The translations under genes were made by a program, and so were the position numbers. A DNA stretch of 64,000 nt from an uncultured Poribacteria bacterium (GTDB lineage: Bacteria > Poribacteria > WGA-4E > WGA-3G), in NCBI GenBank assembly GCA_951813545.1, contig OX638352.1, forward strand, positions 4,867,966-4,931,965. Reading direction: 5' to 3'. Position 1 is the first letter of the stretch. The number at the start of each line of letters is the position of its first letter. Below the pieces are notes generated by a model. It was given only the letters and a program-made list of their open reading frames with translations. It was not told the DNA's origin and made no database searches. Shown piece by piece: positions 17,731 to 54,540 of this stretch.

Positions 17731-17741
17731 TCAAAAGGGAA

Positions 17742-18135: not shown

Positions 18136-18260
18136 GATGATTTAAAATAAAATAGGGGTGGTTTTACCACCCCTATTTAACATTTCACGGGCATTCAGGC
18201 GTGAAGCCCCCTGCTTTAGCAGTGGGAGGAAAGCCTGCTAACCCATTGTGTCAAAAAAAC

Positions 18261-18289
18261 TTGACCATTACGAAAGAATGTAGTATAAT
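18261..18289 (+). promoter_or_regulatory. Near-consensus sigma70 promoter upstream of tnpB (TTGACC-N17-TATAAT)
   Basis: ttgacc at 18261-18266 and tataat at 18284-18289 with exactly 17-nt spacing. A structured 5' UTR follows, with a hairpin at about 18305-18345. Confidence 0.5.
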
Positions 18290-18385
18290 AATCACATCAG
18301 GTTGGCAAGCATACAACGCGTAGTTTCTCAACTACGTGCTTGCCTCCCACGTTGTAGGGGATAAATGCCTGATACCTGATATACC

Positions 18386-19648: not shown

Positions 19649-19714
19649 GCTTGGGTAGTTGACAGAAATAGGACTTACGCATCACCGATTTTTAGGGTAG
19701 GTGATTTCATCAGG

Positions 19715-20755
19715 TTAGTTCTTTGAAACCTTGATGGCTCCCCACGTCACAGCCATCTTATCTAAAGGTTCCACCGGCAGCGAATCACCAACCCACCGAG
19801 GCGAAGTCGGCACACTATCCGACAAAACCACTAAACGCCGAACTTGCTGCGACCCAAGCGAATAGATGTAGAGACCATTATTACCAAAACCTATATCCGC
19901 AGAAAAGACAAGATATTTGCCATTCGGCGACCAATCTACTTGAAAGAACTCCCGCAAACCACGATTGGCTATTTCCAAGTGGTTTATCCCATCAGCATTC
20001 ACAATAAATATGCCTTCATGAAGGTGAGTGACCACGGGGCGAGGGTGCCTCCCATCAACATCGGCAACAAATACACCTTCATGAACAGGGGTGTAGGCTA
20101 TCTTCTTACCGTCCGGGGAGAACGCATAGAACGGGTAACGGTCTAAGAAACCCGCACGTTCAGGGAATGGCGAGTGTTTCTTCGGTTTCTCCTGTCCATT
20201 GACATTCGACTCCCAGATCTCCTGATGCCTGTCCGTTGAAGTGAGATTGTAGAACACGGATTGCGCATCTGGTGCCCAGACGAAACCTATTGGATTCTTA
20301 CCAATGGGGTGGAGTAACTTTCGCTTCCGTCGTCCATCCGGCGAAATTAGAAAGATTTCTGTGTTCACATCGCGTCCACCTCTTATCCTTTGCGGACTGC
20401 CAGCATACACAATCCAACGTCCATCTGGAGACCAAGAAATATCGACATAAGAATGGACTTGCAAGATGATGGACCGAATTCTCTTACCGGTGCGAAGGTC
20501 TCGGATATGGAGAACATTACGGCGGTCCGGGTCGCCATCGACCGCTGCCAAAAAGCGACCATCCGGCGAAGGCGTAGAAATACCTTCATCCGCAATGCGC
20601 GTAGGTGTAGGGACGGTATCATTGGGACGTATCATGTAGGTCGTGCTACGATAGGAGTAGACAATCATACCTTCTGCCCAACAGAGCAGATTCGGGCAAA
20701 CACCCGATAGAAGCATTATTACCGAAAACAGAAAAGTCAAGCGATACGTGTTCAT
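19715..20755 (-). CDS. Secreted PD40/TolB-like beta-propeller repeat protein
   Basis: Has a signal peptide (MNTYRLTFLFSVIMLLSGV) and repeated SPDG/WSPDG motifs such as FSPDGKKIAY and WSPDGRWIVY. Confidence 0.6.
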   Translation of the reverse strand: MNTYRLTFLFSVIMLLSGVCPNLLCWAEGMIVYSYRSTTYMIRPNDTVPTPTRIADEGISTPSPDGRFLAAVDGDPDRRNVLHIRDLRTGKRIRSIILQVHSYVDISWSPDGRWIVYAGSPQRIRGGRDVNTEIFLISPDGRRKRKLLHPIGKNPIGFVWAPDAQSVFYNLTSTDRHQEIWESNVNGQEKPKKHSPFPERAGFLDRYPFYAFSPDGKKIAYTPVHEGVFVADVDGRHPRPVVTHLHEGIFIVNADGINHLEIANRGLREFFQVDWSPNGKYLVFSADIGFGNNGLYIYSLGSQQVRRLVVLSDSVPTSPRWVGDSLPVEPLDKMAVTWGAIKVSKN

Positions 20756-23932: not shown

Positions 23933-24190
23933 ATGGAGTTTACTGTTAATTTAACAACAGAACAAATTATTGATTTTATCCAGCAGATTCCACCTGAAGA
24001 GAAAATTGCAGTACTTACTACGCTTGCCGAACAGGCGCACGCCGAACATGCCGACCAGATAAAGTATGGCGAAGCAAAGGTCCGTAAGGTATGCGCAGCG
24101 CGAGGATTAAATTGGGACGCTATGACCGAAGAGGAACGAATAGATTTTATTGACGATCTTGTTCATGAGGACAGGGAATGCAGCCGATAA
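23933..24190 (+). CDS. Small acidic hypothetical protein (85 aa)
   Basis: Strong RBS AAAGGAGGAATTAAAATG. It is flanked on both sides by paired (A/T)GCCGCCCCTACGGGGC hairpins and by an inverted 18-bp repeat. Confidence 0.4.
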   Translation: MEFTVNLTTEQIIDFIQQIPPEEKIAVLTTLAEQAHAEHADQIKYGEAKVRKVCAARGLNWDAMTEEERIDFIDDLVHEDRECSR

Positions 24191-38000: not shown

Positions 38001-41000
38001 GTTTGTTTCTATTCCATACTGGTTCGATTAAAAGAATGGCGATCTGCGTTACAGGGCTTTTTTTGTCATTCCAGTTTCTATTCCATACTGGTTCGATTAA
38101 AAGTGTAGGGAGTAATCACGAGGTTTATTTTCTATCTAAGTTTCTATTCCATACTGGTTCGATTAAAAGTATTGCAAAGATGTTCCATTTGTGAACATCT
38201 ATATGAAGTTTCTATTCCATACTGGTTCGATTAAAAGCGACTCAGAAAACAGGGTCGTAGGAGCTGGGGGGCGTTTCTATTCCATACTGGTTCGATTAAA
38301 AGATCTCGTTTCGCAGGGCTATGACGAAGACACAATCAAGTTTCTATTCCATACTGGTTCGATTAAAAGGCACGTACTTAATGCGTCCTCTGAAGCCCTT
38401 GTACTTTTTGTTTCTATTCCATACTGGTTCGATTAAAAGTCGATGCTCGTCCAATTTTGAAGCTTACCATCTCCGCAGTGTTTCTATTCCATACTGGTTC
38501 GATTAAAAGACAACACTTACTTCCAGGATGAGGACTACTACATAACGTTTCTATTCCATACTGGTTCGATTAAAAGTCAGATTGGTTCCCCTGATCATAA
38601 TGCTTATACGACCTATCTTGTTTCTATTCCATACTGGTTCGATTAAAAGTCATCACCCACAAGTTCCATCGTCTGAATCAAAGGGGTTTCTATTCCATAC
38701 TGGTTCGATTAAAAGGCCGCTTGAATCGCTGCTAAACAAGTGCCAGGAGTGTTTCTATTCCATACTGGTTCGATTAAAAGGAGGCTGTACTGGGTGCATC
38801 GCTTCGCCCATTGATCCAAACGAGTTTCTATTCCATACTGGTTCGATTAAAAGACGCGTCGTCGACAGGCTTTACATACCAATCGTAGGTTTCTATTCCA
38901 TACTGGTTCGATTAAAAGGACTGAAAGCGTAACTCTCCGACCATATTCGTAGCAGGTTTCTATTCCATACTGGTTCGATTAAAAGCAGTTCGGCTGGGAG
39001 AAATTTATGGAAGGAGTCAAAAGGCAAGTTTCTATTCCATACTGGTTCGATTAAAAGCACCAACAGTCCCACCTTCAGTCCCCCAGAGAAAGTGTTTCTA
39101 TTCCATACTGGTTCGATTAAAAGATGCAGGAGAAGGAGACAGTAAGGGATCACGTGAAGGGTTTCTATTCCATACTGGTTCGATTAAAAGTTTGGGCAAA
39201 ACGTTCAAGCATAGCATCCAGAAAAACGTTTCTATTCCATACTGGTTCGATTAAAAGTGTACAGTCTCGGTAAGGCACGTATCACACTTCCTGCGTTTCT
39301 ATTCCATACTGGTTCGATTAAAAGAACATGCCCGTCCGCTGCAGGAAGATGGTACGGAAGTTTCTATTCCATACTGGTTCGATTAAAAGTATTATTGCTT
39401 GTGTCGGTGCGTCCGACTTTTCTGTGTTTCTATTCCATACTGGTTCGATTAAAAGTCGTAACAACGTGTAGTAACTTCTGCAAAATTGCGGTTTCTATTC
39501 CATACTGGTTCGATTAAAAGGCTATTGGAGTTGCTTATTATGAAACTTGAAAAAGAGTTTCTATTCCATACTGGTTCGATTAAAAGTTAGAAAACACAAT
39601 ATCATCCTCCTCCACCAGTATGTTTCTATTCCATACTGGTTCGATTAAAAGAAACGCTCTGTCCAGTAAGTCTTTATCCACGCCCACAAGTTTCTATTCC
39701 ATACTGGTTCGATTAAAAGTGGTGTTTCTACCCCCGCTATCAACCGCCTAACGAATGTTTCTATTCCATACTGGTTCGATTAAAAGAGAAACTGCTTCTG
39801 TAACCGCTTACTAATAATGATGCGTTTCTATTCCATACTGGTTCGATTAAAAGAGGAGATGCCCAATGTGCGTTGGTGGGAAAATATGTGTTTCTATTCC
39901 ATACTGGTTCGATTAAAAGGCAAGGTGCTTGGTGCTGGTGGTGCAGGGTAAGACTGTTTCTATTCCATACTGGTTCGATTAAAAGTTATCAAGTCGAAGA
40001 AGCAATCGCTTAAACCTAAGTTTCTATTCCATACTGGTTCGATTAAAAGTCTATGAAATGATCGTCGTCGCTCAACTCGTACCGTTGTTTCTATTCCATA
40101 CTGGTTCGATTAAAAGGCGCCTCTTGCAGTTGTTGGGCTGTATCCGAGAGTTGCGTTTCTATTCCATACTGGTTCGATTAAAAGTGAACCAAGCCGTACG
40201 AACGACACAGACATTTGAATGTTTCTATTCCATACTGGTTCGATTAAAAGTTTGCCGCGTGGCATTTTCTACACACTTCGCGAGAGTTTCTATTCCATAC
40301 TGGTTCGATTAAAAGGTCTTTGAGAAACGTCAACGCGTTAGCTATCTTTGGTTTCTATTCCATACTGGTTCGATTAAAAGTCCTGCATCGAAGATTCATC
40401 GAGCGCAAGTTCCATGTTTCTATTCCATACTGGTTCGATTAAAAGGCGAATAGAGATGTGGACTGTTCGGGATTCCTTAGTGTGTTTCTATTCCATACTG
40501 GTTCGATTAAAAGTTAAGGTTGAGGCAGGTGATGTTGATGTTCAGTCCTAGTTTCTATTCCATACTGGTTCGATTAAAAGTCAAGCACTCCATTCAAAAA
40601 AACCGGCTCCTACAACAAGCGTTTCTATTCCATACTGGTTCGATTAAAAGATCCACGCCCACAAAGGAGCATAGACAATTTCCTTTTTTCTATTCCATAC
40701 TGGTTCGATTAAAAGAATTGCCAAGAGAGTATCTCAGCACCTTCAATACGTAAGTTTCTATTCCATACTGGTTCGATTAAAAGTTCCATCTCTTCAAATG
40801 AATAACCTCCGTGGAAGTTTCTATTCCATACTGGTTCGATTAAAAGGCGCGTCCTTCACGGGCGCGTCAAATCCTGCAAGGTGCTGTTTCTATTCCATAC
40901 TGGTTCGATTAAAAGTTGCCAAACCAGACAATCAGCATGTACTGACCCAAGAATTGTTTCTATTCCATACTGGTTCGATTAAAAGTCCTGTTCCCGATCG

Positions 41001-44000
41001 TGGCAATGATATTGATCTGATCTGTTTCTATTCCATACTGGTTCGATTAAAAGTTGATAGTCATGGGTTACCTGTTGACGTTGCTAAGTTTCTATTCCAT
41101 ACTGGTTCGATTAAAAGGTACCCATTTTCCGTCTTACCGTTAGCAACGTCAACGTTTCTATTCCATACTGGTTCGATTAAAAGCGCACAACTGATGCAGT
41201 TCCGCCCCCCCCAGGAATGTTTCTATTCCATACTGGTTCGATTAAAAGAAAGATCTGAATTAAACTGCTATCTTCACATTCTGTCGTGTTTCTATTCCAT
41301 ACTGGTTCGATTAAAAGCATGTCAGGCGGTGCCATGATGCACATTAACTTCAAGATCAGGGTTTCTATTCCATACTGGTTCGATTAAAAGTCATCGAACC
41401 CATCCACGACATCGACGAACGCCGCGTTTCTATTCCATACTGGTTCGATTAAAAGGGGTATCGTCCGGCATAGCGCTCACAGGCGTAGAGGGTTTCTATT
41501 CCATACTGGTTCGATTAAAAGATCAATAAAATTTTCTTCAAAGGTGCTGTGCAGTGTTTCTATTCCATACTGGTTCGATTAAAAGTCCCTTCTATTAAGG
41601 TATCCACAAGTTCATTCTGGTTTCTATTCCATACTGGTTCGATTAAAAGCCTGACAGCCACAATTATCGCAGACGTTGACAGCGTGGTTTCTATTCCATA
41701 CTGGTTCGATTAAAAGCCGATGGCAAGGGAATAAACCCCCTTGCCACAACAAAGTTTCTATTCCATACTGGTTCGATTAAAAGTAACTTCGGATCGTCTT
41801 CATCATCAAAGTCTTGTTGAGTTTCTATTCCATACTGGTTCGATTAAAAGGCGAAACGAGATCAGCATACGCGTTCGACGCGCCCCAGTTTCTATTCCAT
41901 ACTGGTTCGATTAAAAGGAGGTTATCCAAAGTTACTACGACCGTAACGAAAAAGGTTTCTATTCCATACTGGTTCGATTAAAAGGCAGGCATCAAGCGAA
42001 ACTTACGGAGGTTATCACAGTTTCTATTCCATACTGGTTCGATTAAAAGTTATTCGGTGCGTCATAAAGCACGCGACCATTTGCAAGTTTCTATTCCATA
42101 CTGGTTCGATTAAAAGGTCTTACCAAACGGATGCCTCTGGGACAGATGAAGGTTTCTATTCCATACTGGTTCGATTAAAAGTTTATCGGGGGGAATTACC
42201 CAGAGGGCTATGGCGGCGTTTCTATTCCATACTGGTTCGATTAAAAGAACAGGGCGGAGTCCTCTTGGGGATTGTTGGTCACGTTTCTATTCCATACTGG
42301 TTCGATTAAAAGGCGGGAACATCAGAAACGGTATGAGGAAATCCGTATAGGTTTCTATTCCATACTGGTTCGATTAAAAGACGCGCCGAGAGAGACGCAC
42401 TGTACACACTTCGCAGTGGTTTCTATTCCATACTGGTTCGATTAAAAGATTAACACCTAAATCACTTTGAAACGTTTGACGTGGTTTCTATTCCATACTG
42501 GTTCGATTAAAAGGAGACATTCATACCGATGTCGATACCGATCTCTTGGGTTTCTATTCCATACTGGTTCGATTAAAAGCGGATACGGGCGGTGCTCTTA
42601 GAACTGTATATCTCGTGTTTCTATTCCATACTGGTTCGATTAAAAGGGGTTTCCTGACGCATAGTAATCCATTTTTTGATCTACGTTTCTATTCCATACT
42701 GGTTCGATTAAAAGAAAATTCAGAGTGTTACACCAAAGGGACACCTTTTCGAGTTTCTATTCCATACTGGTTCGATTAAAAGGTCAGGAAAGAAGATGAC
42801 GCAGGAGGGTTAAACGTTTCTATTCCATACTGGTTCGATTAAAAGTTCCCCGCACTGCCAAGATAAAGAAGAGCAATTTCATAGTTTCTATTCCATACTG
42901 GTTCGATTAAAAGCTGGTCAAAACTAGGCTCCCAACAACAACCAGTTAAGTTTCTATTCCATACTGGTTCGATTAAAAGTCACAAACTGAGCAGTGCCGA
43001 CAACCCACCTTGACATGTTTCTATTCCATACTGGTTCGATTAAAAGTCAAGGTCGTGGAAGGCAGGATAATCGTTTTCAAGATGTTTCTATTCCATACTG
43101 GTTCGATTAAAAGGGTACTTTCGAGAACCCTAATGCGACTTTTGATAGTCAAGTTTCTATTCCATACTGGTTCGATTAAAAGCGCACGCACGCCTGCAAC
43201 AGTCTCTCCGACTGTAATGTTTCTATTCCATACTGGTTCGATTAAAAGATAAACTTCTCCCAGCCAAACTGGGATGTCAACATACGATCATGTTTCTATT
43301 CCATACTGGTTCGATTAAAAGCTCCGCTTTCGGCCTTTGCGATAGCGTCTCCGAGATTGTTTCTATTCCATACTGGTTCGATTAAAAGATATGCTCCTCG
43401 CACGGTTCAGGCTGGGTGGCTTAGGTTTCTATTCCATACTGGTTCGATTAAAAGGACATAGCTACAAATATAGGAGGTATCAGCAGTGGGTGTTTCTATT
43501 CCATACTGGTTCGATTAAAAGTGAAATGATACAGGCATGGGCTTCTGGAGAGATGACAAGTTTCTATTCCATACTGGTTCGATTAAAAGACGTTTAGACG
43601 ACCGTTTACGATGATGCTTGCGAACGTTTCTATTCCATACTGGTTCGATTAAAAGTCCAGATATGGCAGTTGACACCGAGATTCACAGAATTGTTTCTAT
43701 TCCATACTGGTTCGATTAAAAGGTATGAGGAAATCCGTATAGCGGAAGCGACGTTGGAAGGTTTCTATTCCATACTGGTTCGATTAAAAGTATACAGCCA
43801 GCGGTACGGTAGAAGTTCAATATAGTGTTTCTATTCCATACTGGTTCGATTAAAAGCTTACACGTATCGACCGGCAGTGATACTCGATCTGATGTTTCTA
43901 TTCCATACTGGTTCGATTAAAAGAATATCTATGTCCTGCTCACTGACAGAAACATCCTGGTTTCTATTCCATACTGGTTCGATTAAAAGCCAAGAAATTA

Positions 44001-44322
44001 TACCAGCCACCCGTATCGGTCCAAGTTTCTATTCCATACTGGTTCGATTAAAAGCGAACTCAACTTACCGACAGCCGAATCGACATCATCAAGTTTCTAT
44101 TCCATACTGGTTCGATTAAAAGAGCGCACTTGGCGCGATGTGGTATCCCGATACATAAGAGTTTCTATTCCATACTGGTTCGATTAAAAGCACTCGAATC
44201 AATGCCCAAGCATCGCTTGATTTGACGTTTCTATTCCATACTGGTTCGATTAAAAGGTAAGTTGTAACAGCCTTGTTAGAACGTTTCGGAATGTTTCTAT
44301 TCCATACTGGTTCGATTAAAAG
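35067..44322 (-). CRISPR. CRISPR array with 139 copies of a 30-bp repeat (GTTTCTATTCCATACTGGTTCGATTAAAAG on the plus strand) and 138 spacers of about 34-42 nt
   Basis: Repeat starts were counted manually. The terminal repeat at 35067-35096 is degenerate (gtttcaattctctactggttcgattaaaaa). The leader-proximal perfect repeat at 44293-44322 abuts the cas2-side leader. Transcription is inferred on the minus strand, where the repeat reads CTTTTAATCGAACCAGTATGGAATAGAAAC and ends in GAAAC. Confidence 0.95.
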
Positions 44323-44579
44323 GCTCTACGAAAACCATGTATATATCATACAGAACTCCTGTGGGGCGTGTCAAGTCAATTTTACTTACTGCATGTTCTA
44401 AGACCAATTTGCTGTCGATCTTCGGTAGTGTAAATTCTCTGGGAGGTTGACGGCTCTTTACAAAGCGCGGGTTCGGACACTCATTTGACGAGAAATGACG
44501 GATGTGGTTACCTTTCAAAACCCTGATATAAGCGCGGTCGACAGCGGATTTTAGGTTTAAATTTCAGTACAAGTTACAC
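44323..44579 (-). promoter_or_regulatory. CRISPR leader
   Basis: A 257-bp non-coding segment between the cas2 stop and the first perfect repeat. The degenerate repeat at the opposite end of the array supports this as the leader side. Confidence 0.55.
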
Positions 44580-44843
44580 CTAAAGCAAGTTTGTTGCCGG
44601 GTTTTTATCTACACCCATAACCTCTTTATTCATCCAGCGGACATCGCGTAACTGGTAGATGATAATGGAGTCCTTTTCGGGATCAGTGAGTGCTGCTAAC
44701 CCAGATTTGACTCGTGCCAACTGCGCTTTGGTTAACTGTCCTTCAAAAACCGAATTTTGAATCCAATTGAGGTGTTGACGGAGATATTTGCATACCTTTG
44801 CGACACGTTCAACTTGAATGTCGTAAACGAGAATAATATACAT
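44580..44843 (-). CDS. cas2: Cas2
   Basis: MYIILVYDIQVERVAKV... matches the Cas2 N-terminus. The longer ORF's N-terminal extension is encoded by a family-1 REP hairpin (44866-44886), so the start is placed at the internal Met. Confidence 0.8.
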   Translation of the reverse strand: MYIILVYDIQVERVAKVCKYLRQHLNWIQNSVFEGQLTKAQLARVKSGLAALTDPEKDSIIIYQLRDVRWMNKEVMGVDKNPATNLL

Positions 44844-44933
44844 CGGAGACAATTCCTTGATAAGAGGCGAGGTTGGAAACCTCGCCAGCGAATACACGAG
44901 ATTAAGCGTGGCATCGCGATCATGAGATAACGC

Positions 44934-45947
44934 CTACCACCACGGACGTAATGCCTGATAGGTTTCCATTTCGACGAGATGCTTGATGAGTTTATAGCAC
45001 TCCAAACGAATCAACCGCTGATATGAGACGTGCCGTTTCAATTTGCGATGCGAAACGGTTTGCTTCATTTGTTCATCAAACGCGGCGATAAACAGTTTGC
45101 GTCCTTGTTCATTGAGGGAACACGCGCCGACGTTCGTCTCAAAGTGCTTTGACTCGTTGAGCTGCCGCCGATTGAACAATCGGAAGATAATCCTGTCAAC
45201 AATGAGAGGTTTGAAAATTTCAGCGAGGTCAAGACTGAGCGAGAAACGTCTGGCACCCGGTTCATGGAGAAAACTGATTGTGGGGTTGAGCTGCGTCCGA
45301 TAAATTTCAGTTAAACATGCTGCATATATCAACGAATTGCCAAAAGAGATGGCAGCGTTAATCGGGTTGTCCGGTGGACGGCGCACCCGCTTTTCAAAAG
45401 GTACTTTTAATTCCAAAATCGTATTGAATGCGGTGTAATATGTGTCTCGGATCGTGCCTTCATACCCCATCAACTCATTTGTGTTTTTTGCTGAAGGACT
45501 TTCCGCAAGGAGCTTTTCAATCGGTTCAATTTGGGCATTGCAATCCTTGCCTCGATTCGTGTGATACCGTAAAATTCGCAACATGTTGAAGACAGCGGAG
45601 GCGACAAACTCCTGTGCAAGAACCATCCGCTTGGTAGATTTTTCGTAGTGTTGTACCTGTTTGACAAGCAGGGAACCGGAATTGAGGTATTCTCGGGGAT
45701 AGTAACTCCCGGAATAGTAGCCGTAATAGTTAAACACATGAAAGGCGATATGTTTTTGTGCGAGAAAGTTGAGAAGCTTGGTATTGAGGTCGAGTTCCCC
45801 GTAGAAATAGAGTGCGTCGATGTCCTCAACGGGGATTGGGACCCGTGACGTATCTTCTCGTTCCAAATAAAGGGTATTGTCTTTTCGGCGCAGTCTGCCG
45901 GGTTGGGTGATGTAGTAGTTACGTGACATAATTGGTTTTCCTCCCAT
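44934..45947 (-). CDS. cas1: Cas1 integrase
   Basis: 337 aa with a typical Cas1 N-terminus (YYITQPGRLRRKDNTLYLE) and a conserved C-terminal region. Confidence 0.9.
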   Translation of the reverse strand: MGGKPIMSRNYYITQPGRLRRKDNTLYLEREDTSRVPIPVEDIDALYFYGELDLNTKLLNFLAQKHIAFHVFNYYGYYSGSYYPREYLNSGSLLVKQVQHYEKSTKRMVLAQEFVASAVFNMLRILRYHTNRGKDCNAQIEPIEKLLAESPSAKNTNELMGYEGTIRDTYYTAFNTILELKVPFEKRVRRPPDNPINAAISFGNSLIYAACLTEIYRTQLNPTISFLHEPGARRFSLSLDLAEIFKPLIVDRIIFRLFNRRQLNESKHFETNVGACSLNEQGRKLFIAAFDEQMKQTVSHRKLKRHVSYQRLIRLECYKLIKHLVEMETYQALRPWW

Positions 45948-45984: not shown

Positions 45985-46494
45985 TTAACTCCAGCAGAGT
46001 TCCTGATAACTACAGGATTTACAGATTTTCATATAGTCGGCGTGCGGTGGTGTCGGCAGTGCTGCAATCTCGCTTACTTTTTCAATAGCGGTTTCCACCT
46101 CTCGTTCCGTTTCGGGTGTGAGTTCAACCTCCGTGGTTCGGTGTTGACGTGGATAGTTGATAACGCCTTTCCGGTTAGATATTCCTTTCTGTTTGAGCAG
46201 ATAGAGGTAATAACAGAGTTGCATGATGTGTGCGGTTTCCATCGCGGGACCAGATTTGATGTCGTGGAGGATGCCTTGTTTGTCAACGAAGTCAATCCGG
46301 ATGAGGTCGTCGATGTTCCATTCTCTCCGTTTTTCGCGAGTGTAACTTTCGTCGTGGAGGAGTTGTCCGAGGTCAACATATTCGGAGGTATGCTCCATTT
46401 CGAGGTGGTTTCGGTAGAACCAGAGTTTGCGCGTGCAGATGTAGAGATAGTTTATGGCTGTGCCTGTGATGTTGGTGTGGTCTGGGTTTTGCAT
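45985..46494 (-). CDS. cas4: Cas4 (RecB-like nuclease with C-terminal Fe-S Cys cluster)
   Basis: The N-terminus YICTRKLWF and the C-terminal Cys pair CKSCSYQELC are characteristic. Confidence 0.8.
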   Translation of the reverse strand: MQNPDHTNITGTAINYLYICTRKLWFYRNHLEMEHTSEYVDLGQLLHDESYTREKRREWNIDDLIRIDFVDKQGILHDIKSGPAMETAHIMQLCYYLYLLKQKGISNRKGVINYPRQHRTTEVELTPETEREVETAIEKVSEIAALPTPPHADYMKICKSCSYQELCWS

Positions 46495-46520: not shown

Positions 46521-48857
46521 TTATAAGAGGTTTGGGTTAGGTTCATCCAATTGCAAACCGAGTGTCTCATCATAGCAAACGTTTATGAACCGCTGAGGAT
46601 TGGAGTCATCTTTATTGAGTAAGTTTTCACGGCATAGTTTCGCGAATTGATAATCACGGATTTGGGCAACATAAGCCATTGCTTCATAATATTCTTTTTC
46701 ATCAATATGTGCTAAATAAATATCTTTGAACTTAATTGGAACGACTTCAAAGCTTTTAAATAGATTTTCAAATTCATCGCGCCCGGATTTGTCCTCAATG
46801 AAGGGAAAGATGCTTTCCACATGCTGTTCAAACATCCGTTTTGCATCCTCAAACTTTGCTCGTTCATCTTCATTGTAGTCATCACCATAAATTTCATCAA
46901 TAAGACCTTGGATTTTGGATTCGGACAGGACATCATTAACTTGAGCGAACGCGTTTTTGGTGCGTTCGACCCTTTCAGTACTATAGATGAAACTGTCGCT
47001 TTTACCACCCTGATTGCATATATGAACATCACAGATACCTTTTTTACCTTTCCGGTTGATTCGACCAAAGCGTTGGATGAGCGCGTCTATAGGTGCGGGT
47101 TCTGTAAAGAGACAATCAAAATCAATGTCAAGCGAAACCTCAACTGCTTGCGTGCCTACAAGGAAATCAGCGTTTTTAAGTTCCTTTTCAATCCGTTGTC
47201 GGTCTTTGAGAATAAATCGGCTGTGAAGAAGTTTAGCTTTGTCCTCTTTGACTGCACCCCGCAATGTTTTAAATACTTCCTGTGCCTGATTAACGGTATT
47301 ACAGACAACCATGACACGCTCTTCTTCGTTTAGCTTATCCTCTATTTGCGGAATGGCATCGTGGATATTTCCATCAAATAACTGGACCCGGTGCCGAGTG
47401 AAATTTTTGTCTCGTTCTTCTGGTGCCATTTCAATCTGTGCAATCTGTGCAAGTTGCCCAAGTGCGTCGTTAATCATCTGTTTAAGAAACTTTGGCATTG
47501 TAGCAGTCATAATGCAGAATTTTGCATCGTAATCTTCACGGAGTTTCTTTATCATTGTCAAAATAAGTGCTGTGGTGTGTGGGTCATAGGCGTGGATTTC
47601 GTCAAAAATAAAGAGTCCTTGCGACATCTCTGACATCTGCATCTCAAAGCCGCGTATACCGAAAAATGCTTTTAGCAATTGAAAGGGGGTTAGCACCTTG
47701 TAAGGACGACAGATTTTATTAGTTAGGTCTCTTTCAACTTTCGCGTGTTTTTTCGCTTGTTCCTGCACAATTAGTTTTTTAGCAGATTCAGGTTCATGTC
47801 CTTCAGCAATGAGGGTTTGATATTTGGTTTGATACTTCTCATCAATATCTTGCCGTTTGTATTCCCTATCAGCGAATTGCCGATAAATGAAGTAGGCAGC
47901 TTTACCATGCAATACACCTATTTTTTCTTTAGTAACCAATTTTTTGAGGCGTTTATACATAGCGTTGATACTCGCTGTGTAAGGTAACACGTAAAAGACG
48001 CGATTTCCCAATGTCTTGCATTGATTTTTATCGGACCAGAGGAGTGCGGCTTCGGTTTTGCCGGAACCTGTCGGTGCTGAGAGCATGAGTTGCCCAATTG
48101 TTTCACCAGAGGCTTCTTGAAAGGATTCCCATTTGTCAAACTGTTTGATCTGTTCTACAAGACACGCTTCAAGGTTATCAAGTGCAGTTTGAACCTCATT
48201 TTTGCTGGCAGAAGCAGAAGCGAGATGGTCACAGGCAATCATACACCCGCGCATAAGCATGCCGTAGGTGCCATGTAAAGGCGTTAATTCTCTGTCCTCT
48301 TTGCTGTTCAGGTAAGGTCTCAGAAATTCTCGGTAACCCCCAATGAGTTGATCTGTTGACTTAACAGGTGTCCAAAAGCATTCTGCTGTAGGACACCACT
48401 GCGGTACTTGTTCCTGAATTTCCATCAAAGCGTCCCAATTTGGCGTAAGTTCTGCAATATGCTTTTGCCATTCTTGGTAGTCATATTCGTTCTCTTGTCC
48501 ACACGAATACTTCTCTACCAGTGTCTCAATATCCTTGTGATGTGTTAAAATTGCGAGTGCAATTGCCTGTTTTGCTGATTGTGAGGTTTGAAGGTTAACA
48601 ACAAATCCTGTCGATAGGATCTCATGACGATAGTTCCATCGCTTCCCATCGGTGAGCTGCTTTTGAAAACCTGTTGCTGCCTTTCCGAAATCGTGAAGCG
48701 CAACAGCGTAGAAAAGGTGTTCAAAGAAATCGGGTACTTTGGCAACCTCGGTTAAAAACGGCATCCGCTCTCGGAGGCTATTGTATACAGCAAGGCAATT
48801 CTTTGTATGTTCAAGAAGCGTTTCCGGTGGATCGCTTTTCGCAAACAATATTGACAT
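46521..48857 (-). CDS. cas3: Cas3 (HD nuclease fused to SF2 helicase)
   Basis: HD domain (ALHDFGKA...ILTHHKD), Walker A (SAPTGSGKTEAAL) and DEAH-like (FIFDEIHAYD) motifs. Confidence 0.9.
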   Translation of the reverse strand: MSILFAKSDPPETLLEHTKNCLAVYNSLRERMPFLTEVAKVPDFFEHLFYAVALHDFGKAATGFQKQLTDGKRWNYRHEILSTGFVVNLQTSQSAKQAIALAILTHHKDIETLVEKYSCGQENEYDYQEWQKHIAELTPNWDALMEIQEQVPQWCPTAECFWTPVKSTDQLIGGYREFLRPYLNSKEDRELTPLHGTYGMLMRGCMIACDHLASASASKNEVQTALDNLEACLVEQIKQFDKWESFQEASGETIGQLMLSAPTGSGKTEAALLWSDKNQCKTLGNRVFYVLPYTASINAMYKRLKKLVTKEKIGVLHGKAAYFIYRQFADREYKRQDIDEKYQTKYQTLIAEGHEPESAKKLIVQEQAKKHAKVERDLTNKICRPYKVLTPFQLLKAFFGIRGFEMQMSEMSQGLFIFDEIHAYDPHTTALILTMIKKLREDYDAKFCIMTATMPKFLKQMINDALGQLAQIAQIEMAPEERDKNFTRHRVQLFDGNIHDAIPQIEDKLNEEERVMVVCNTVNQAQEVFKTLRGAVKEDKAKLLHSRFILKDRQRIEKELKNADFLVGTQAVEVSLDIDFDCLFTEPAPIDALIQRFGRINRKGKKGICDVHICNQGGKSDSFIYSTERVERTKNAFAQVNDVLSESKIQGLIDEIYGDDYNEDERAKFEDAKRMFEQHVESIFPFIEDKSGRDEFENLFKSFEVVPIKFKDIYLAHIDEKEYYEAMAYVAQIRDYQFAKLCRENLLNKDDSNPQRFINVCYDETLGLQLDEPNPNLL

Positions 48858-48917
48858 AGATTTTTTCTCCGTAGGGGCGTGGTCCCCACATCCGATTTTG
48901 TTTCGTTTAAATGTTCC

Positions 48918-49544
48918 TTACCATCTCGAAGGGTTGTCAGGATGCAATTGATCTAATTCCCATTTCATCGGATTATCCTGAATATATTGGCGAAGTCGTT
49001 GTAAATCTGGTTCGTCTCGGATGATATGATCGTGATAATTTCTTTGCCAAACACGCGTTCTGGGTGTATTGTAGTGTTGGTTAATATGCTTGGTGGATTG
49101 ATATTTGAAATAGGCTATGATTTTGCCTAACGAGGGCGAGGGGACCTCGCCCCTACGATTATTTTCTGGTTCGTCTGACGCAGGCGAGGGGACCTCGCCC
49201 CTACGAGTGTTGGGATCTTCTGGTGGGCGTGGGGACCTCGCCCCTACGAGTGGTTGTGGATCCCTCGTCTCTGCGATGCCCCATGAAATAATTCCGTGAA
49301 AATGATTAGGCATGATGACAGAATCGCCCAATTCAACGGAGGGAAAATGTTGTGGAATATGTTTCCAACATTCAACGACAATTTGGCCTATTGCATTCAA
49401 TCGCATTTTCCCATCTGTTATTGTCCCCAATAAACATTTTCGGTGTTGTACACAGATGGTCACGAAATATGCACCGGGTTGGCTGTAATCATAATTACGC
49501 AAACGCATGGCGCGGCGTTGAGGAAGATTGGATTTGGAGTTCAT
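48918..49544 (-). CDS. REP-associated tyrosine transposase (RAYT, IS200/Y1 HUH superfamily) carrying in-frame REP insertions
   Basis: The N-terminus RLRNYDYSQPGAYFVTICVQ, the HuH motif NHFHGII, and the C-terminal WQRNYHDHIIRDEPDLQRLRQYIQDNPMKWE (catalytic Tyr) are RAYT hallmarks. Three copies of the hairpin GGCGAGGGGACCTCGCCCCTACG, at 49135-49153, 49183-49201 and 49228-49245, lie in-frame between the HuH and Tyr motifs and encode RRGEVPSP-type segments. Confidence 0.75.
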   Translation of the reverse strand: MNSKSNLPQRRAMRLRNYDYSQPGAYFVTICVQHRKCLLGTITDGKMRLNAIGQIVVECWKHIPQHFPSVELGDSVIMPNHFHGIISWGIAETRDPQPLVGARSPRPPEDPNTRRGEVPSPASDEPENNRRGEVPSPSLGKIIAYFKYQSTKHINQHYNTPRTRVWQRNYHDHIIRDEPDLQRLRQYIQDNPMKWELDQLHPDNPSRW

Positions 49545-49562
49545 AAGGAAACCCCCTCAGCG

Positions 49563-49624
49563 GGCGAGGAAACCTCGCCCCTACGATATTTTACGGTTGA
49601 ATTGGACGAGGGGACCTCGCCCCT
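49563..49624. repeat. Two family-1 REP hairpins immediately upstream of the RAYT gene
   Basis: ggcgaggaaacctcgcccctacg (49563-49585) and gacgaggggacctcgcccctacg (49607-49629). Confidence 0.8.
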
Positions 49625-49632
49625 ACGATGTG

Positions 49633-50367
49633 TTATGGTGAGATGCTGGGGAGTTGCATCTGTTTTCCGTCCACATCAGGAACTTGATAGTTTTTGTCAA
49701 CGGGTTTCCTCTTTTGCTCATTTGGAACGGTAAACTCCCCAGGAATACGTTCGTGTAGATACACACCCCAATCCATTTCTGGGTCGTGCAAAACATCACC
49801 ACGGTATTCAATTTTTTCTGTTATCAGACAATATGCACGCGTGCCGCAAGGACGACGCGGGATTTCTGCTGTGAAATGGGTTGGAAGTGCCTGAACCTGT
49901 CCATATAATTGTGCGTCAGGAAACGGAAGCAGCGTATCTTGATAGGTTGTTTCTGATACGTTTTCGAGTTGAATTTCCTTTATAGATTCTACGGTTGCTA
50001 GATCGGAGGACCGCCCTAAGAGTAACGGATAACACGGGCGTTCAAACGCTTCTTTTAACCACATATCAGGCGTATAGAGATAGAGTTCGGGTTGGACAAG
50101 AAATTCGCGTTTGTTGACGTTTGACTTGGCATCCAATTTTCCTGCAAACTCATAGAGGGTTTCTAAATCAACGGCTTTGCCGTTACTCTTGAAAACAAAT
50201 CCGATTGTGGCATCATGTGGCGTAACCCAATCCCCCTTTGCAGCAGAAAGAAGACCATAGATTGCTGATAGTGGAGGCAAAGGGAGTGTCGGTTGGAATC
50301 CACTAATGAATAGCGGATTCCGAAACGACGCGACCCAACCGGTGATGTGCACCCGAATCACTTTCAT
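49633..50367 (-). CDS. cas5: Cas5 (type I)
   Basis: The N-terminus MKVIRVHITGWVASFRNP matches Cas5. It overlaps the cas7 stop by 4 nt. Confidence 0.7.
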   Translation of the reverse strand: MKVIRVHITGWVASFRNPLFISGFQPTLPLPPLSAIYGLLSAAKGDWVTPHDATIGFVFKSNGKAVDLETLYEFAGKLDAKSNVNKREFLVQPELYLYTPDMWLKEAFERPCYPLLLGRSSDLATVESIKEIQLENVSETTYQDTLLPFPDAQLYGQVQALPTHFTAEIPRRPCGTRAYCLITEKIEYRGDVLHDPEMDWGVYLHERIPGEFTVPNEQKRKPVDKNYQVPDVDGKQMQLPSISP

Positions 50368-51398
50368 GGTGAGTCTCCGATATGAATTTCTAACTTTTGT
50401 GATAGTTGAGCGATCACTTTATTTGGCGAATCGTAAACGATTTCGCACGGTAGATTTGTGTCCTCTCCTAACCCACACAGAGCTCCTTCTAACTCATCCA
50501 TGAACCCGTTTCGTCTGCCGATGTAAATTGCATCACAAAACCGGTCAGCGTAGTCGTCAATAACTTGTCGCAGTGCGAGTAGACTCAGTTTCCCTACACC
50601 GTTTTCTTCAACGATGAGATTCATGAAAGGATGATTGCCGCCGTCAAGGACTGAAAGAATAATAAGTTTCGGGGTGACATCGGTGAGGTGTGATGTTAAC
50701 TTTGCCCCACCACTGAGAATAGGCAGTACTTCAAGCGTCTGTTGGCAACGTCTGAGCCGAGTTTCTTTTGGTAGTACCCACGGTGATTTCTCATCTGCCT
50801 GTGAGCCACCAGCATCTTGAATCTTGGGAACATAACTCTCGGCTATGTTCAGATAACCCGTTTTATTGATGTGAGAAAACGCTCCAACAGCCGCAAGGTC
50901 AAGAGAAAAAATGCCCTGTAGAACACATGAATAAAACTGATGTTCATAAGGCACAGGGTCGCCTTTTTTTTGACGTGCCATCACGCCAAAATCGTTCGTT
51001 GGGGTTTGCGGTTCAATAGAGATAAGCGGTGAGCATTTGAGCGGTGACAAGCGGGTTACCGTCAAGTTAACCTTTTTCTTCCCTTGCATTTCGCTTTGTG
51101 CGCGCATATAACCAAAGACGTCGTCATCGTCATAAGTCACAGGGTCTGCGGCAGTAAAGGCGATTTTTTTCTCGCGTTCTATAGGTGAATTTTTCCAGTC
51201 GTCAAATTCCTGTTCAAGCGTTGTTCGCCACCAATTTCGCCATGCCTGTCCGGAAACATACGGATAGGCATCTCGTCTTTTCTGAAGTTTTTTGACGGTA
51301 ACGATATTCTCTGTGGCTTGAGATGCTTCTGTTCCAGCATTGTTTAGCGCAGAATAGGGCGCGTCAATTAGGGTTAGTCCAATAAGGTGCTTAGACAT
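50364..51398 (-). CDS. cas7: Cas7 (type I-B-like backbone subunit)
   Basis: The N-terminus LTLIDAPYSALNNAGTE...YPYVSGQAWRNWWR is typical of the Cas7 Csh2/Cst2 group. Confidence 0.75.
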   Translation of the reverse strand: MSKHLIGLTLIDAPYSALNNAGTEASQATENIVTVKKLQKRRDAYPYVSGQAWRNWWRTTLEQEFDDWKNSPIEREKKIAFTAADPVTYDDDDVFGYMRAQSEMQGKKKVNLTVTRLSPLKCSPLISIEPQTPTNDFGVMARQKKGDPVPYEHQFYSCVLQGIFSLDLAAVGAFSHINKTGYLNIAESYVPKIQDAGGSQADEKSPWVLPKETRLRRCQQTLEVLPILSGGAKLTSHLTDVTPKLIILSVLDGGNHPFMNLIVEENGVGKLSLLALRQVIDDYADRFCDAIYIGRRNGFMDELEGALCGLGEDTNLPCEIVYDSPNKVIAQLSQKLEIHIGDSP

Positions 51399-51412: not shown

Positions 51413-52816
51413 TTATGATGCATCATCTGCATCTGATGTATTCTCTTCTTCGTATTCTACATAACCGTGTTCTTGTAACCAACTGTGGAGTTGTTCGTAA
51501 ATCCGAAATAGCAGTAGGTCGCGTGTCTCTCGCCACGGCGTAAGGTTGAGGTTATCGCTCGCGGGGAAAAGATATTCCATGTAATCATCAATTGAAAATA
51601 AGGGTTCCGGTGCACCTTGTTGAATCCTTTCACGGATGACATAGCGTAAAATATTTCTACATTCACCGTAACTTTTTGCCCGCTCTAATTGCTTAAGCCG
51701 CTTATCATCTTTAGATTCCTGGATGCACTCAGAAATTAGATTTCCGACCTGCTTAATTTTTTCAACTCGTGTTTGCTCCATAGTTCTAACCTCCTGTAGA
51801 TAGAGGGAAAATAGTTCCCAGTTGCTGCGTGTTTTCCGCGCGAGTTTATCAATGAAAAATCCACGTATTGATTTATCCTCTAACAGATTATTATAGACTA
51901 AATTTGTCGATTTTTGATAAATCTCGGTTGGGTTTGTCTTATCCGAATCAATATTTTGAAACCCTTTTTTTGTTTGTCTCCTATAACCACTTCTGACAAT
52001 TAGATACCAGTTTTTGGCATACTGTGCCCGATGTGCATAGCGCAGAAAATTAAAGACCCTTGCTGGCAAGTGATACAGGTCTAATTCAGCTTTCCTATTA
52101 TCATTGGAAAAACTGTAAACCTGCATCGTAATATTCCCATCTGATCGTGCTTTTTCATACTCGATCATTTTCCTTACCATATAGAAAAGAGCATTTTGAG
52201 CTTTTGATTCCTTTGGATCAAAAAATCCCGTAAATTCGTTTCGGGACCCGCGACTAATAACATCTTCAATACAAGTTCTCGTCCAGTAACTTATGGCTTT
52301 CCAAGAATTTGAGTGTAAAGCTAAAAACTTTCCTCCACTACGAACAAATCCTAACGGTGCCAATTGGATAGCAAGCGCACATGCAGCACAATAACCAACG
52401 CCCTCTGCGAATAAAGGGAAGAAATTTCGTAGACTTCCAGAACCCGTGAGTGGAACTTCTGTCTTCTTAAGATGAAAATCCGCACTTCGCCTACCACATC
52501 CCATGCAATCGCCAGTATCACCCAGATCGGTAACTTTACAAAGTTGATGGAACCATTCTGATTTAAGTTCTTCATTAAGGCTCTGTATGCCTTTTTGGAT
52601 TTTGCTATGCTGGGTTAAGGTGCTGTTTGGAAAAATAAATCGGATTTGAGTGCGGTATTCGGACTCACAATAAAGCGGTACAACCTGCTGAACGACTTCT
52701 TGTAAATCTTCGACTGTAATTTCATTTGGCTGCGGGTGCCCCCCTAGCCATTCACAAATCGCACATACTCCGGCATCAACAAATGGATTGCCCATTAGTT
52801 TCTCATATATTGGCAT
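51413..52816 (-). CDS. cas8b: Putative Cas8b-like large subunit (divergent)
   Basis: 467 aa, in the large-subunit position between cas6 and cas7. It has a Cys-rich segment (CMGCGRR...CAACALA). Similarity is weak; assignment is by position. Confidence 0.45.
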   Translation of the reverse strand: MPIYEKLMGNPFVDAGVCAICEWLGGHPQPNEITVEDLQEVVQQVVPLYCESEYRTQIRFIFPNSTLTQHSKIQKGIQSLNEELKSEWFHQLCKVTDLGDTGDCMGCGRRSADFHLKKTEVPLTGSGSLRNFFPLFAEGVGYCAACALAIQLAPLGFVRSGGKFLALHSNSWKAISYWTRTCIEDVISRGSRNEFTGFFDPKESKAQNALFYMVRKMIEYEKARSDGNITMQVYSFSNDNRKAELDLYHLPARVFNFLRYAHRAQYAKNWYLIVRSGYRRQTKKGFQNIDSDKTNPTEIYQKSTNLVYNNLLEDKSIRGFFIDKLARKTRSNWELFSLYLQEVRTMEQTRVEKIKQVGNLISECIQESKDDKRLKQLERAKSYGECRNILRYVIRERIQQGAPEPLFSIDDYMEYLFPASDNLNLTPWRETRDLLLFRIYEQLHSWLQEHGYVEYEEENTSDADDAS

Positions 52817-52986: not shown

Positions 52987-53385
52987 TTAATTGAGCATTA
53001 CTTCCTTCCAAGCAGTTTTACCGAAGGGGACTGCGAATTCGGTTATTATCACATTCTCATCAAAGCCATGTTTTAATTCATCTTCAAGTTTCAATCCGAA
53101 TTGTGCGTCAGGCATTCGCCATTCAATCGATCGCGGGTGTAGATCATTATAGATCTCTACAACATGGATTGGATGTTTCTTTCTTAAATATGCCGTGTAT
53201 ACAAAAGCTTGCGTTTGATGATCTATGAACAAGTACGGTATTAGATATGCCACTCCAAGTTTGGTGAGGTAGTTGGGAACCTCGTTAGTTCTATTTGCGA
53301 CAGTACAAACAAAACCGAAAAGATTGCATTGATTCCATGCAGCAATATATTCTTTGGAAGCCTTCATAATTTCCTCCAAGTCCAT
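52987..53385 (-). CDS. Hypothetical 132-aa protein, possibly NTF2/SnoaL-like fold, inserted in the cas operon
   Basis: The N-terminus MKASKEYIAAWNQCNLFGF resembles SnoaL/NTF2-like starts. It is embedded in an AT-rich segment between cas6 and cas8. Confidence 0.35.
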   Translation of the reverse strand: MDLEEIMKASKEYIAAWNQCNLFGFVCTVANRTNEVPNYLTKLGVAYLIPYLFIDHQTQAFVYTAYLRKKHPIHVVEIYNDLHPRSIEWRMPDAQFGLKLEDELKHGFDENVIITEFAVPFGKTAWKEVMLN

Positions 53386-53590
53386 TCAGTAAAAATTCGG
53401 TCTGCATCCCATAGCAGGTTACTATATAACACTCTAATCTTAATTATACGCGAAACAACTTTATTTGTCAAATATAATTCCATTTTTTTTTAATTTAGTA
53501 TAACTTAACATAACAAAGGATTTTTTAATTATACGCGAAACAACTTTATTTGTCAAATTTCTTGATTAATTCAAAGGGTACTCCAATTCC

Positions 53591-53674
53591 AAATTGGTTC
53601 GATTAAAGATAAACAAAAAAGCGCGTTAGTATCACATAACAAAACAAGTTTCTATTCCATACTGGTTCGATTAG
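53591..53674 (-). CRISPR. Orphan mini-array: one truncated and one near-complete copy of the CRISPR repeat with a 39-nt spacer
   Basis: aaattggttcgattaaag (53591-53608) and gtttctattccatactggttcgattag (53648-53674) match the array repeat. They lie in AT-rich, leader-like sequence downstream of cas6. Confidence 0.6.
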
Positions 53675-53787
53675 ATTATTGATTTCACGTTATATTAGAC
53701 GTTTCACATTTAAAATGGTTTACAGAAACTTTTAAAATATGTGTGTGTGGTCCTCAGCCATACATAAACCCACCCTCATAGTAGGTC

Positions 53788-54540
53788 TTAGACTTCTGCC
53801 ATCCCGAAACCGGCACTGTTTTTGTCGCCGAAACCACACTCGTAGCCGGTTTGGATTAATGCGGGACTTCCAGAGACACGGAATGGACACATCATTCCCT
53901 TTATCTTGATTCCTTTGTAGTCCACCAGACGAGTGACGCGTCCCTGTCGTCTGTCAATGTAGTCTTTATCAAAGGCGAAGGTCAGGGTATCGTCGTGGGG
54001 GACGCGAGCGTGGATTGCTTCGTGTTTGCGGATTAGGTTTTGGCGGATGAGTTCGGAGAGTACTGGATCGTCGGGTAGGCAGTAGTGCATTGCTTGCTTG
54101 CCGTCTCGCTCGCGCTTAGTGGACATTACAATCGGGGAGAGACATCGGAAATGCATTTCTGATTGGAAACGGGGGATACGCGGTATTGTGACATCCGTAA
54201 TTGGCAACCGACGCTGCCCAATGGATAACCGTCCCTCGGTTAAGAGTGTATTGGCGAAATGGGAGAGAAAGCGTTCTACTGGCGAGGAGACGTACCATGT
54301 TAAAGTTGAACGGAAATGGATTTTGTCACCGGTGATGCGTCTGCGTTCTGCCATTAATTGGGAGAAGGTGAAGAGTTTGAAACGTTTCTCGGCAGCGCGG
54401 TAGCCTTCCTCATGTAGAAAAGAGGCATACTCAGGGTCGGATTCGGCGAGGAAACGATAGATGACACCGGCGAGCAGGTGGTTGTAGTTAATGGGTAGGG
54501 TGAGTCCGTTCCCGACATCGGCAACGATTTTGATGCGCAT
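53788..54540 (-). CDS. cas6: Cas6 endoribonuclease
   Basis: 250 aa with a C-terminal glycine-rich loop GFGDKNSAGFGMAEV typical of Cas6. Confidence 0.75.
   Translation of the reverse strand: MRIKIVADVGNGLTLPINYNHLLAGVIYRFLAESDPEYASFLHEEGYRAAEKRFKLFTFSQLMAERRRITGDKIHFRSTLTWYVSSPVERFLSHFANTLLTEGRLSIGQRRLPITDVTIPRIPRFQSEMHFRCLSPIVMSTKRERDGKQAMHYCLPDDPVLSELIRQNLIRKHEAIHARVPHDDTLTFAFDKDYIDRRQGRVTRLVDYKGIKIKGMMCPFRVSGSPALIQTGYECGFGDKNSAGFGMAEV

Follow-up and report, generated by a model that had tools for sequence, protein, structure and literature searches.

A 64,000-nucleotide stretch of the genome of an uncultured Poribacteria bacterium (GenBank assembly GCA_951813545.1, contig OX638352.1, positions 4,867,966 to 4,931,965; hereafter the window) carries, between the genes cas5 and cas3 of a CRISPR-Cas locus, a gene for a REP-associated tyrosine transposase (RAYT) accompanied by copies of a repetitive extragenic palindromic (REP) element. 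This arrangement is probably a REPtron, consisting of a domesticated HUH/Y1 endonuclease of single-stranded DNA and its cognate GTAG-footed REPs, which became frozen in the cas5-cas3 gap and has been inherited together with a type I-B operon. An earlier note, made from the window's sequence, dwelt on REP copies lying in frame inside the transposase gene and mentioned the cas location in passing; the location is the more interesting part.

The RAYT is embedded in a complete type I-B operon in which all genes lie on the minus strand, in the order cas6-cas8b1-cas7-cas5b-RAYT-cas3-cas4-cas1-cas2 (Table 1). Its description as a 208-aa HUH Y1 protein encoded between cas5 and cas3 in the same orientation as the cas genes is borne out by the open reading frame (ORF) and by library matches. 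The nearest homologues of the protein are annotated as Candidatus Poribacteria, and comparison of orthologous cas loci, as the earlier note had proposed, places a RAYT at the cas5-cas3 junction in every related I-B operon examined. The slot is occupied in 10 of 10 other distinct Poribacteria-type I-B operons, in one of them as a deletion remnant, and the layout of the retrieved loci is cas5-REPs-RAYT-inverted REPs-cas3. These operons comprise L001, L002 and L003, L162-L165 (RAYT identity down to 58%), L172 and L173, which were selected through Cas5 and are hence unbiased with respect to the RAYT, and L174, a fourth Cas5-selected operon, which holds the remnant. The window's own strain, represented in six samples, has the same RAYT slot. 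Conservation of the slot spans considerable divergence of its surroundings: among the I-B loci Cas8b is just 50-56% identical and Cas3 69% identical, and the chromosomal flanks are different in L163, L172 and L165, with a split cas3 in the last. Amino-acid distances between pairs of loci, when computed for the RAYT, correlate with the values for cas5, cas3, cas6, cas4 and cas1 (r 0.61-0.67). Among the matches listed, 120 for the RAYT and 120 for Cas5, 30 of the RAYT homologues are encoded on a contig that also encodes a Cas5 homologue. In L174 (6730-7129), an upstream REP is fused directly to the last REP of the ORF, and the N-terminal half, including the HuH motif, is missing; the C-terminal half (LGKIMAYFKYQ...PSRW and stop), two inverted downstream REPs and all cas genes are retained.

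Several further features of these loci deserve mention. L166, a strain with an identical Cas5 and an identical 208-aa RAYT, departs from the window sequence precisely at the REP downstream of the gene; at ~4450-4560 of that locus (window 48860-48920) there are two intact inverted REPs, followed by a more divergent cas3 start, which suggests a recombination breakpoint at the REPs. L163 contains an additional type I effector module (cas8-like, cas7, cas5, cas3; 13239-20729) between the RAYT-bearing module and cas4-cas1, and no RAYT occurs at the cas5-cas3 junction of this additional module. Upstream of cas8b, L164 has a tnpB (OrfB_IS605) insertion as well as a duplication of cas6 (3999-5228). 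A metagenome scan for relatives of the RAYT returned no Poribacterial loci, the top match being 51% identical, and provides out-group context only.

The REP itself reads C-GTAG-GGGCGAGG-TCC-CCTCGCCC on the gene strand, with an 8-bp GC stem, a 3-nt loop and GTAG at its foot, and can also be written as a GTAG-footed GTAGGGGCGAGG-TCC-CCTCGCC. As single-stranded DNA, its best copies fold with a dG of about -9.9 kcal/mol (z -3.2 to -4.0). Six matches are present in the window against 0.02-0.07 expected by chance, all of them within 48870-49627, and no copy was found in the other 63 kb. The earlier note had counted at least 10 dispersed copies, a figure that does not hold, as the remainder belong to other hairpin families; the two copies that it placed directly upstream of the RAYT are both there, and it overlooked the sixth, a degenerate, inverted copy downstream. 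The hairpin of this downstream remnant has decayed (dG -2.9, z 0.2), and relatives have 1-4 intact inverted REPs at the same site.

This local concentration recurs among the relatives. A census of nine distinct loci, 195 kb in total, assigned 37 copies to the RAYT ORF, 35 to sequence no more than 260 nt from the RAYT, 32 to other cas intergenic gaps (cas3-cas4, cas4-cas1, cas1-cas2 and cas5-RAYT; 86 kb searched) and 2 to sequence outside the operon (106 kb searched), so that the cas operon accounts for 104 of 106 copies. A single gap of L172 contains as many as nine in tandem. High-copy dispersal through the genome, as expected of GTAG-type REPs, was absent from the sequence searched, with 2 copies in 106 kb outside the operon. 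A low replicon-wide abundance, of ~14 occurrences, has been reported for the repeats flanking group 4 RAYTs (Bertels et al. 2017, PMC5581495). Nor do the Poribacterial elements constitute REPINs, as they form direct tandem arrays on either side of the RAYT and not inverted doublets.

Two other hairpin families occur in the window. The first, with nine copies (9072-9092, 9136-9156, 9200-9220, 12703, 20907, 23628, 44866, 54588 and 57910), is (CT)GGCGAGG-N7-CCTCGCC(AGC); it has the 7-bp stem of the REP with a 7-nt loop, is devoid of the GTAG/CCTACG foot and has a DNA dG of -10.3 kcal/mol (z -6.9). This family, which is denser than the REP family, includes a 64-nt tandem array of three copies, as well as single copies between cas1 and cas2 and upstream of cas6; no cognate transposase was identified for it. 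The second family (CCGCCCCTACGGGGC; ATRCCGCCCCTACGGGGCT) has five copies of a GCCCC-GTA-GGGGC hairpin with GTAG (9255, 23725, 23775, 24238 and 24287), two direct pairs of which flank an 85-aa ORF of unknown function at 23933-24190.

Within the RAYT gene, three REP units and their spacers make up a hypervariable loop that follows the HuH strand. That three copies lie in frame between the HuH motif and the catalytic tyrosine, as originally proposed, was confirmed, their position being between NHFH and Y187; the RRGEVPSP-like translation applies to two of them, the third being read in a different frame as VGARSPRP. Across 119 close homologues the loop ranges from 15 to 162 aa (median 48) at a constant site, and contains 0-11 REP-coded units (mode 2), with 1-11 units in 116 of them. 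Unit number varies over the full range of 0-11 even among sequences that are >57% identical, some loops (P0002 and P0097) are perfect tandem arrays with 14-aa or 18-aa periods, and the last unit always adjoins the conserved LGKI helix. The reading frame is kept across a loop of 24-228 nt in all 166 relatives compared, from many phyla, with an internal stop in just 4. Of the three readings that the earlier note had offered, tolerance of REP-encoded peptide by the linker between the two catalytic motifs is the one backed by the data, through this retention of frame and by the prevalence of unit-bearing loops.

Orientation and frame were counted in 10 Poribacterial loci. All 37 REPs inside the ORF are in gene orientation, as are all 23 upstream REPs, whereas all 17 downstream REPs are inverted. 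Of the three possible frames, frame 1 accounts for 23 in-ORF copies and frame 0 for 14, and the TAG-containing frame 2 is never used. Array periods inside the ORF are 39, 42, 48, 54 and 81 nt, or 43/46 nt with a frame switch, and are thus multiples of three or compensated frame shifts; in the non-coding arrays upstream, the period is 41-43 nt. Avoidance of stop codons does not explain the orientation bias, because the inverted REP, as read from its sequence, is free of stops in every frame. The bias is explained by local duplication of the direct copies upstream, with the caveat that the copies are not independent events.

Judged by its motifs, the position of its loop and its flanking REPs, the RAYT fits TnpA_Y1 subclass 2.4 (Quentin et al. 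2018, BMC Genomics 19:475, PMC6006769), which corresponds to group 4 in the RAYT classification of Bertels et al. 2017 (PMC5581495). Subclass 2.4 is characterized by NH[IFV]H, WQ and YIxNNP motifs, a median length of 194 aa and a variable loop between beta3 (the HuH strand) and alphaC that derives from in-frame REPs and is peripheral to the active site (PMC6006769). The window protein has NHFH, W166-Q167 and YIQDNP, with its inserts at the subclass 2.4 site, and REPs inside the ORF are therefore an already described feature; the earlier note had called the combination unusual, yet in-frame REPs between HuH and Y are a published hallmark of the subclass (PMC6006769). N80, H81, H83, Y187 and N191 are all invariant in a 35-sequence alignment, and at the fourth position of the Y motif the window has D and the orthologues L001, L003 and L162 have N. 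Partial similarity to the family also appears in hidden Markov model (HMM) searches, and alignment to RAYT families, a check that the earlier note had recommended, places the inserts between the HuH and Tyr motifs. Pfam Y1_Tnp (PF01797) matches at 25.1 bits (cut-off 23) over profile positions 61-121, that is, the C-terminal half only, and NCBIfam REP_Tyr_transpos (NF047646) at 62 bits, under its cut-off of 80, in two stretches separated by the loop. As a REP-coded loop lowers HMM scores, such genes are easily mislabelled as fragments. A RAYT-family profile searched against PDB recovered 4ER8, E. coli TnpAREP (E=7.8e-4), with an alignment that spans the HuH strand and the tyrosine motif YIxxNP; a PDB search from the single RAYT sequence gave noise only, and an AlphaFold2 model from the shallow 35-sequence alignment, at a mean predicted local distance difference test score of 43.7, was too poor for a fold search. 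PADLOC returned no match for the RAYT. In addition, the features of IS200/IS605 elements are lacking, as the Y motif ends in NP and not in Y...Q, no tnpB is adjacent and a single conserved site is occupied.

The RAYT gene is intact and under purifying selection. The dN/dS of its core is 0.12-0.34 across eight orthologues, and its mean amino-acid divergence of 0.18 equals that of Cas7 and Cas4 and is near that of Cas1 (0.15). These values, together with the invariant catalytic motifs, contradict the idea that the RAYT is decaying. The alternative idea that the REP family is currently active is weakly addressed by the window's strain, which is 99-100% identical among the six samples with an unchanged number of units, and is not favoured by it.

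A single entry followed by mainly local action of the RAYT would account for the polarized flanks, the arrays in tandem, the spread into adjacent cas gaps, the exclusive survival of in-frame copies in a tolerant loop and the REP-to-REP deletion allele of L174. The REPtron was probably acquired once by the ancestor of the operon lineage and carried since then by vertical descent, possibly also by transfer of the operon. The RAYT would act mainly in cis, copying or reshuffling REPs within and beside the RAYT gene, with copies also reaching nearby gaps between cas genes, and arrangements that break the frame of the ORF would be purged by selection. The REP-coded peptide could then be regarded as a tolerated, probably disordered passenger, and direct REP copies would predispose the gene to deletions such as that in L174. 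A role in CRISPR immunity need not be assumed.

A number of observations weigh against this interpretation. The count of REPs outside the operon rests on 106 kb. Cis action and the copying of REPs by the RAYT are suggested by sequence patterns, and the literature on subclass 2.4 consulted for comparison gives no measured activity for any member. Long retention, Cas-like purifying selection and confinement of the REPs would fit an operon-tied function as well, and the existence of two cas-embedded clades among close relatives (see below) exceeds what a single frozen accident predicts. Furthermore, divergence at four-fold sites is 0.38 for the RAYT and 0.49-0.58 for every flanking cas gene (~40 sites per pair; window against L001-L003, L162-L165, L172 and L173), after Nei-Gojobori dS had first put the synonymous rate of the RAYT at 2-4 times slower than that of the cas genes. 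Synonymous constraint, gene conversion and small-sample noise are all possible causes of this minor unexplained point.

The second clade comes from cyanobacteria, which supply the nearest non-Poribacterial relatives of the RAYT. Ten of these are found in type I-D operons (L006, L007, L009-L014, L019 and L038), with the layout cas3 helicase - REP pair - RAYT - Uma2 - cas10d - csc2 - csc1 - cas6 - cas4 - cas1. Their REP, GTAGGGGCGAGGTCTCCTCGCCC, is almost the same as the Poribacterial one, additional copies are present in another cas gap, and inverted REP pairs were seen only upstream of these cyanobacterial I-D RAYTs. The loop of this clade is a conserved 26 aa in length and includes no REP-coded units. 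Residence in cas loci thus extends to two clades, with 11 distinct I-B operons (the L174 remnant and the window included) and 10 loci of type I-D. When 163 cores were placed in a neighbour-joining tree, each cas-embedded clade was recovered in 200/200 bootstraps. A common origin of the two was rejected, as their exclusive monophyly appeared in 2/200 and cyanobacterial RAYTs in housekeeping contexts fall in between. As separate observations, the REP pair and RAYT of L009 lie between two direct 84-nt copies, 95% identical, of the Uma2 5' end (9750-9833/10565-10648), and short Uma2 fragments upstream of the RAYT were also found in L007, L011 and L013.

These data bear on the strongest rival explanation, according to which type I CRISPR-Cas has co-opted the RAYT and its REPs as a functional accessory. 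In one version, the REPs between cas5, RAYT, cas3, cas4, cas1 and cas2 would govern how stable the mRNAs of Cascade, cas3 and the adaptation module are relative to one another, or their read-through, and the RAYT would be kept to maintain the REPs; in another, the HUH nuclease would process single-stranded DNA made by Cas3. Such a proposal gains from the retention of the slot through cas8b divergence to ~50% identity, from constraint on the RAYT resembling that on Cas proteins, from the near-exclusive placement of REPs within the operon and from the independent cas3-adjacent I-D clade with nearly the same REP and extra copies in another gap; moreover, REPs act as mRNA stabilizers and attenuators within operons (reviewed in PMC3733652). 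However, the two cas-embedded clades are not sisters and are separated by RAYTs in non-cas housekeeping contexts, cas neighbours are lacking at ~145 further subclass 2.4 loci in the survey, L174 keeps all its cas genes after losing the N-terminal half of the RAYT, and one cyanobacterial copy (L010) contains an in-frame stop. The absence of a PADLOC match and the purely comparative nature of the argument count against it as well. In addition, cas loci are known sinks for insertions. On balance, co-option appears unlikely. A bolder form, in which the RAYT clade and its REPs constitute a dedicated operon-local module of type I systems (I-B in Poribacteria, I-D in filamentous cyanobacteria) and the RAYT is selected for that role, is doubtful. 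The REPs would then tune Cascade, cas3 and adaptation genes as RNA or DNA elements, or the HUH nuclease would handle Cas3-generated single-stranded DNA, and this, if true, would for the first time assign a domesticated RAYT a concrete function in its host.

Two remaining explanations are highly improbable. RRGEVPSP and VGARSPRP could represent a native low-complexity linker with coincidental hairpins nearby, as at least a short linker is present in every close homologue and the last unit abuts the LGKI helix; the earlier note had regarded such a linker in homologues lacking REPs as grounds for abandoning its proposal. Yet the in-ORF units match the non-coding flanking copies at 22/22 nt, one DNA unit is read in two frames, unit number varies from 0 to 11 among close homologues, the 26-aa loop of the cyanobacterial cas-embedded clade has no REP-coded units, and the phenomenon has been published as REP insertion (PMC6006769). 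Equally remote is a decaying pseudogene overrun by REPs or a recent active IS200/IS605-type insertion, for which the partial Pfam match, the sub-threshold NCBIfam score, the degenerate downstream REP of the window and the genuine truncation in L174 might be cited, but which is contradicted by the intact ORF with its invariant HuH, W and Y motifs and low dN/dS, by the shared site in 10 distinct operons with correlated divergence, by the missing tnpB partner and the YIxxNP in place of the IS200 Y...Q, and by the constancy of unit number among the near-identical strains of the six samples.

Table 1. Features of the RAYT gene, its REP copies and the surrounding type I-B locus, in window coordinates (dG, folding energy of the DNA hairpin)
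Feature	Position	Strand	Remarks
RAYT/TnpAREP coding sequence	48918-49544	-	208 aa, TnpA_Y1 subclass 2.4 type; ORF with translation, family matches
HuH motif NHFH	49296-49307	-	residues 80-83; agrees with subclass 2.4 key motif NH[IFV]H
Hypervariable loop	49131-49286	-	residues 87-138, after HuH strand; three REP units and spacers
Catalytic tyrosine motif YIQDNP	48969-48986	-	residues 187-192; aligns to YIYINP of 4ER8
Upstream REP, distal	49605-49627	-	GTAGGGGCGAGGTCCCCTCGTC; right after cas5 stop; dG -6.4 kcal/mol
Upstream REP, proximal	49563-49585	-	GTAGGGGCGAGGTTTCCTCGCC; gene-oriented, 19 nt before ATG; dG -9.9 kcal/mol, z -4.0
In-ORF REP copy 1	49225-49248	-	GTAGGGGCGAGGTCCCCACGCC; frame 0, VGARSPRP; dG -6.7 kcal/mol
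In-ORF REP copy 2	49183-49205	-	GTAGGGGCGAGGTCCCCTCGCC; frame 1, RRGEVPSP; dG -8.1 kcal/mol
In-ORF REP copy 3	49134-49157	-	frame 1, RRGEVPSP, then conserved SLGKIIAYFKYQSTK helix; 8-bp stem, 3-nt loop; dG -9.9 kcal/mol, z -3.2
Downstream REP remnant	48870-48892	+	GTAGGGGCGTGGTCCCCAC...; inverted relative to gene, between RAYT stop and cas3 start; 1 mismatch
cas6	53788-54540	-	
Conserved ORF between cas6 and cas8b1	52987-53385	-	
cas8b1	51413-52816	-	
cas7	50364-51398	-	
cas5b	49633-50367	-	upstream neighbour of RAYT; TIGR01895, 145 bits
cas3	46521-48857	-	downstream neighbour of RAYT; HD nuclease and helicase; Pfam Cas3_HD, DEAD, Cas3-like_C_2
cas4	45985-46494	-	
cas1	44934-45947	-	
cas2	44580-44897	-	
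CRISPR array	35067-44334		very large; ~140 repeats of GTTTCTATTCCATACTGGTTCGATTAAAAG, directly after cas2

Other parts of the locus and of the window present features of their own. The ORF between cas6 and cas8b1, of 115-132 aa, recurs in L163 (5789-6175), L172 (2954-3340), L173 (2858-3205) and L166 (1-381), and has no match in Pfam, NCBIfam or PADLOC. An orphan mini-array between cas6 and the Cascade genes (53578-53677) contains one good and one degenerate CRISPR repeat with a single spacer, beside a duplicated 34-nt TTGACA-17-TATAAT promoter-like sequence (53440-53553); it resembles the repeat-like regulatory elements reported for cas autoregulation (bioRxiv 10.1101/2023.03.03.530964). Scans for promoters and terminators around the RAYT yielded nothing exceeding shuffled expectation, and an Rfam scan of the window yielded no matches. 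Three paralogous genes lie elsewhere in the window (32-3163, 3370-6066, 14100-17177 (-)). Two of them (1025 and 1043 aa) encode a BNR/sortilin-type beta-propeller region joined to an extracytoplasmic function (ECF) sigma factor, and the third (898 aa) was assigned solely by its 65-85% DNA identity to the other two. A conserved repeat of ~50 nt precedes each paralogue and is also found at 17578, 17681 and 21376.

RAYTs were first described in 2010-2011 and are single-copy, vertically inherited and under selection; to our knowledge, no host function has been assigned to them. The present case is tractable in this respect, as the RAYT and nearly all of its REPs reside in one well-understood operon with measurable outputs, including CRISPR RNA, interference and spacer uptake. 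Natural variants exist, with 1-11 units in the ORF and one REP-to-REP deletion allele, and a parallel is available in the cyanobacterial I-D operons. The case also illustrates the cost to a gene of carrying its own target sites, since direct REPs can delete half of it.

No description of an association between a RAYT or TnpAREP and cas3 or CRISPR was found in the limited collection of literature searched, and the conserved cas slot, the co-divergence, the confinement of the REPs and the second, I-D case are apparently unreported. REPs inside the ORF are already known, and the Poribacterial clade is a new member of its subclass; on the basis of the literature searched, the conserved and operon-confined residence in a cas locus is a new organizational variant, being found in none of the papers. 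With subclass 2.4/group 4 the window RAYT shares its motifs, a length near the median, the REP-built loop, low repeat abundance and canonical GT[AG]G REPs that flank the gene within 1 kb and have GGG at the foot of the stem. It differs in the fourth Y-motif residue (D, in YIQDNP) and in its host phylum, and no mention of conserved residence in a cas operon or of REP confinement was found in PMC6006769 or PMC5581495.

Comparison with more distant systems reveals a similar mixture of shared and distinct traits. The E. coli REPtron (TnpAREP/YafM, PDB 4ER8; Ton-Hoang 2012, PMC3333891; Messing 2012, PMC3479197) likewise consists of a single-copy HUH/Y1 nuclease with inverted, GTAG-footed REP flanks; however, its enzyme belongs to subclass 2.2 (DHLH, WE, YIHYNP) with no REPs inside the ORF, and its REPs are long, bulged and dispersed in hundreds of copies (REP/BIME, the latter for bacterial interspersed mosaic elements). 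The Pseudomonas REPIN-RAYT system (Bertels and Rainey 2011, PMC3116915) also pairs a RAYT that is single-copy and vertically inherited with a population of cognate repeats, but one of inverted REP doublets spread genome-wide, whereas the repeats here form direct tandem arrays by and in the gene and are nearly limited to one operon. GTAG REPs lying in frame within coding regions and tolerated in loops have been reported by Di Nocera et al. 2013 (PMC3733652), although in unrelated genes such as recB and not in the gene of the cognate transposase. Finally, CRISPR-associated transposons (CAST) of the Tn7-like type, casposons and TnpB/IscB share with the present case the physical linkage of a transposase-family gene to cas genes; those systems involve DDE/TnsB, Cas1 or RuvC-type proteins with demonstrated functional coupling, whereas the Poribacterial locus, known here from sequence alone, places an HUH/Y1 enzyme between the Cascade genes and cas3.

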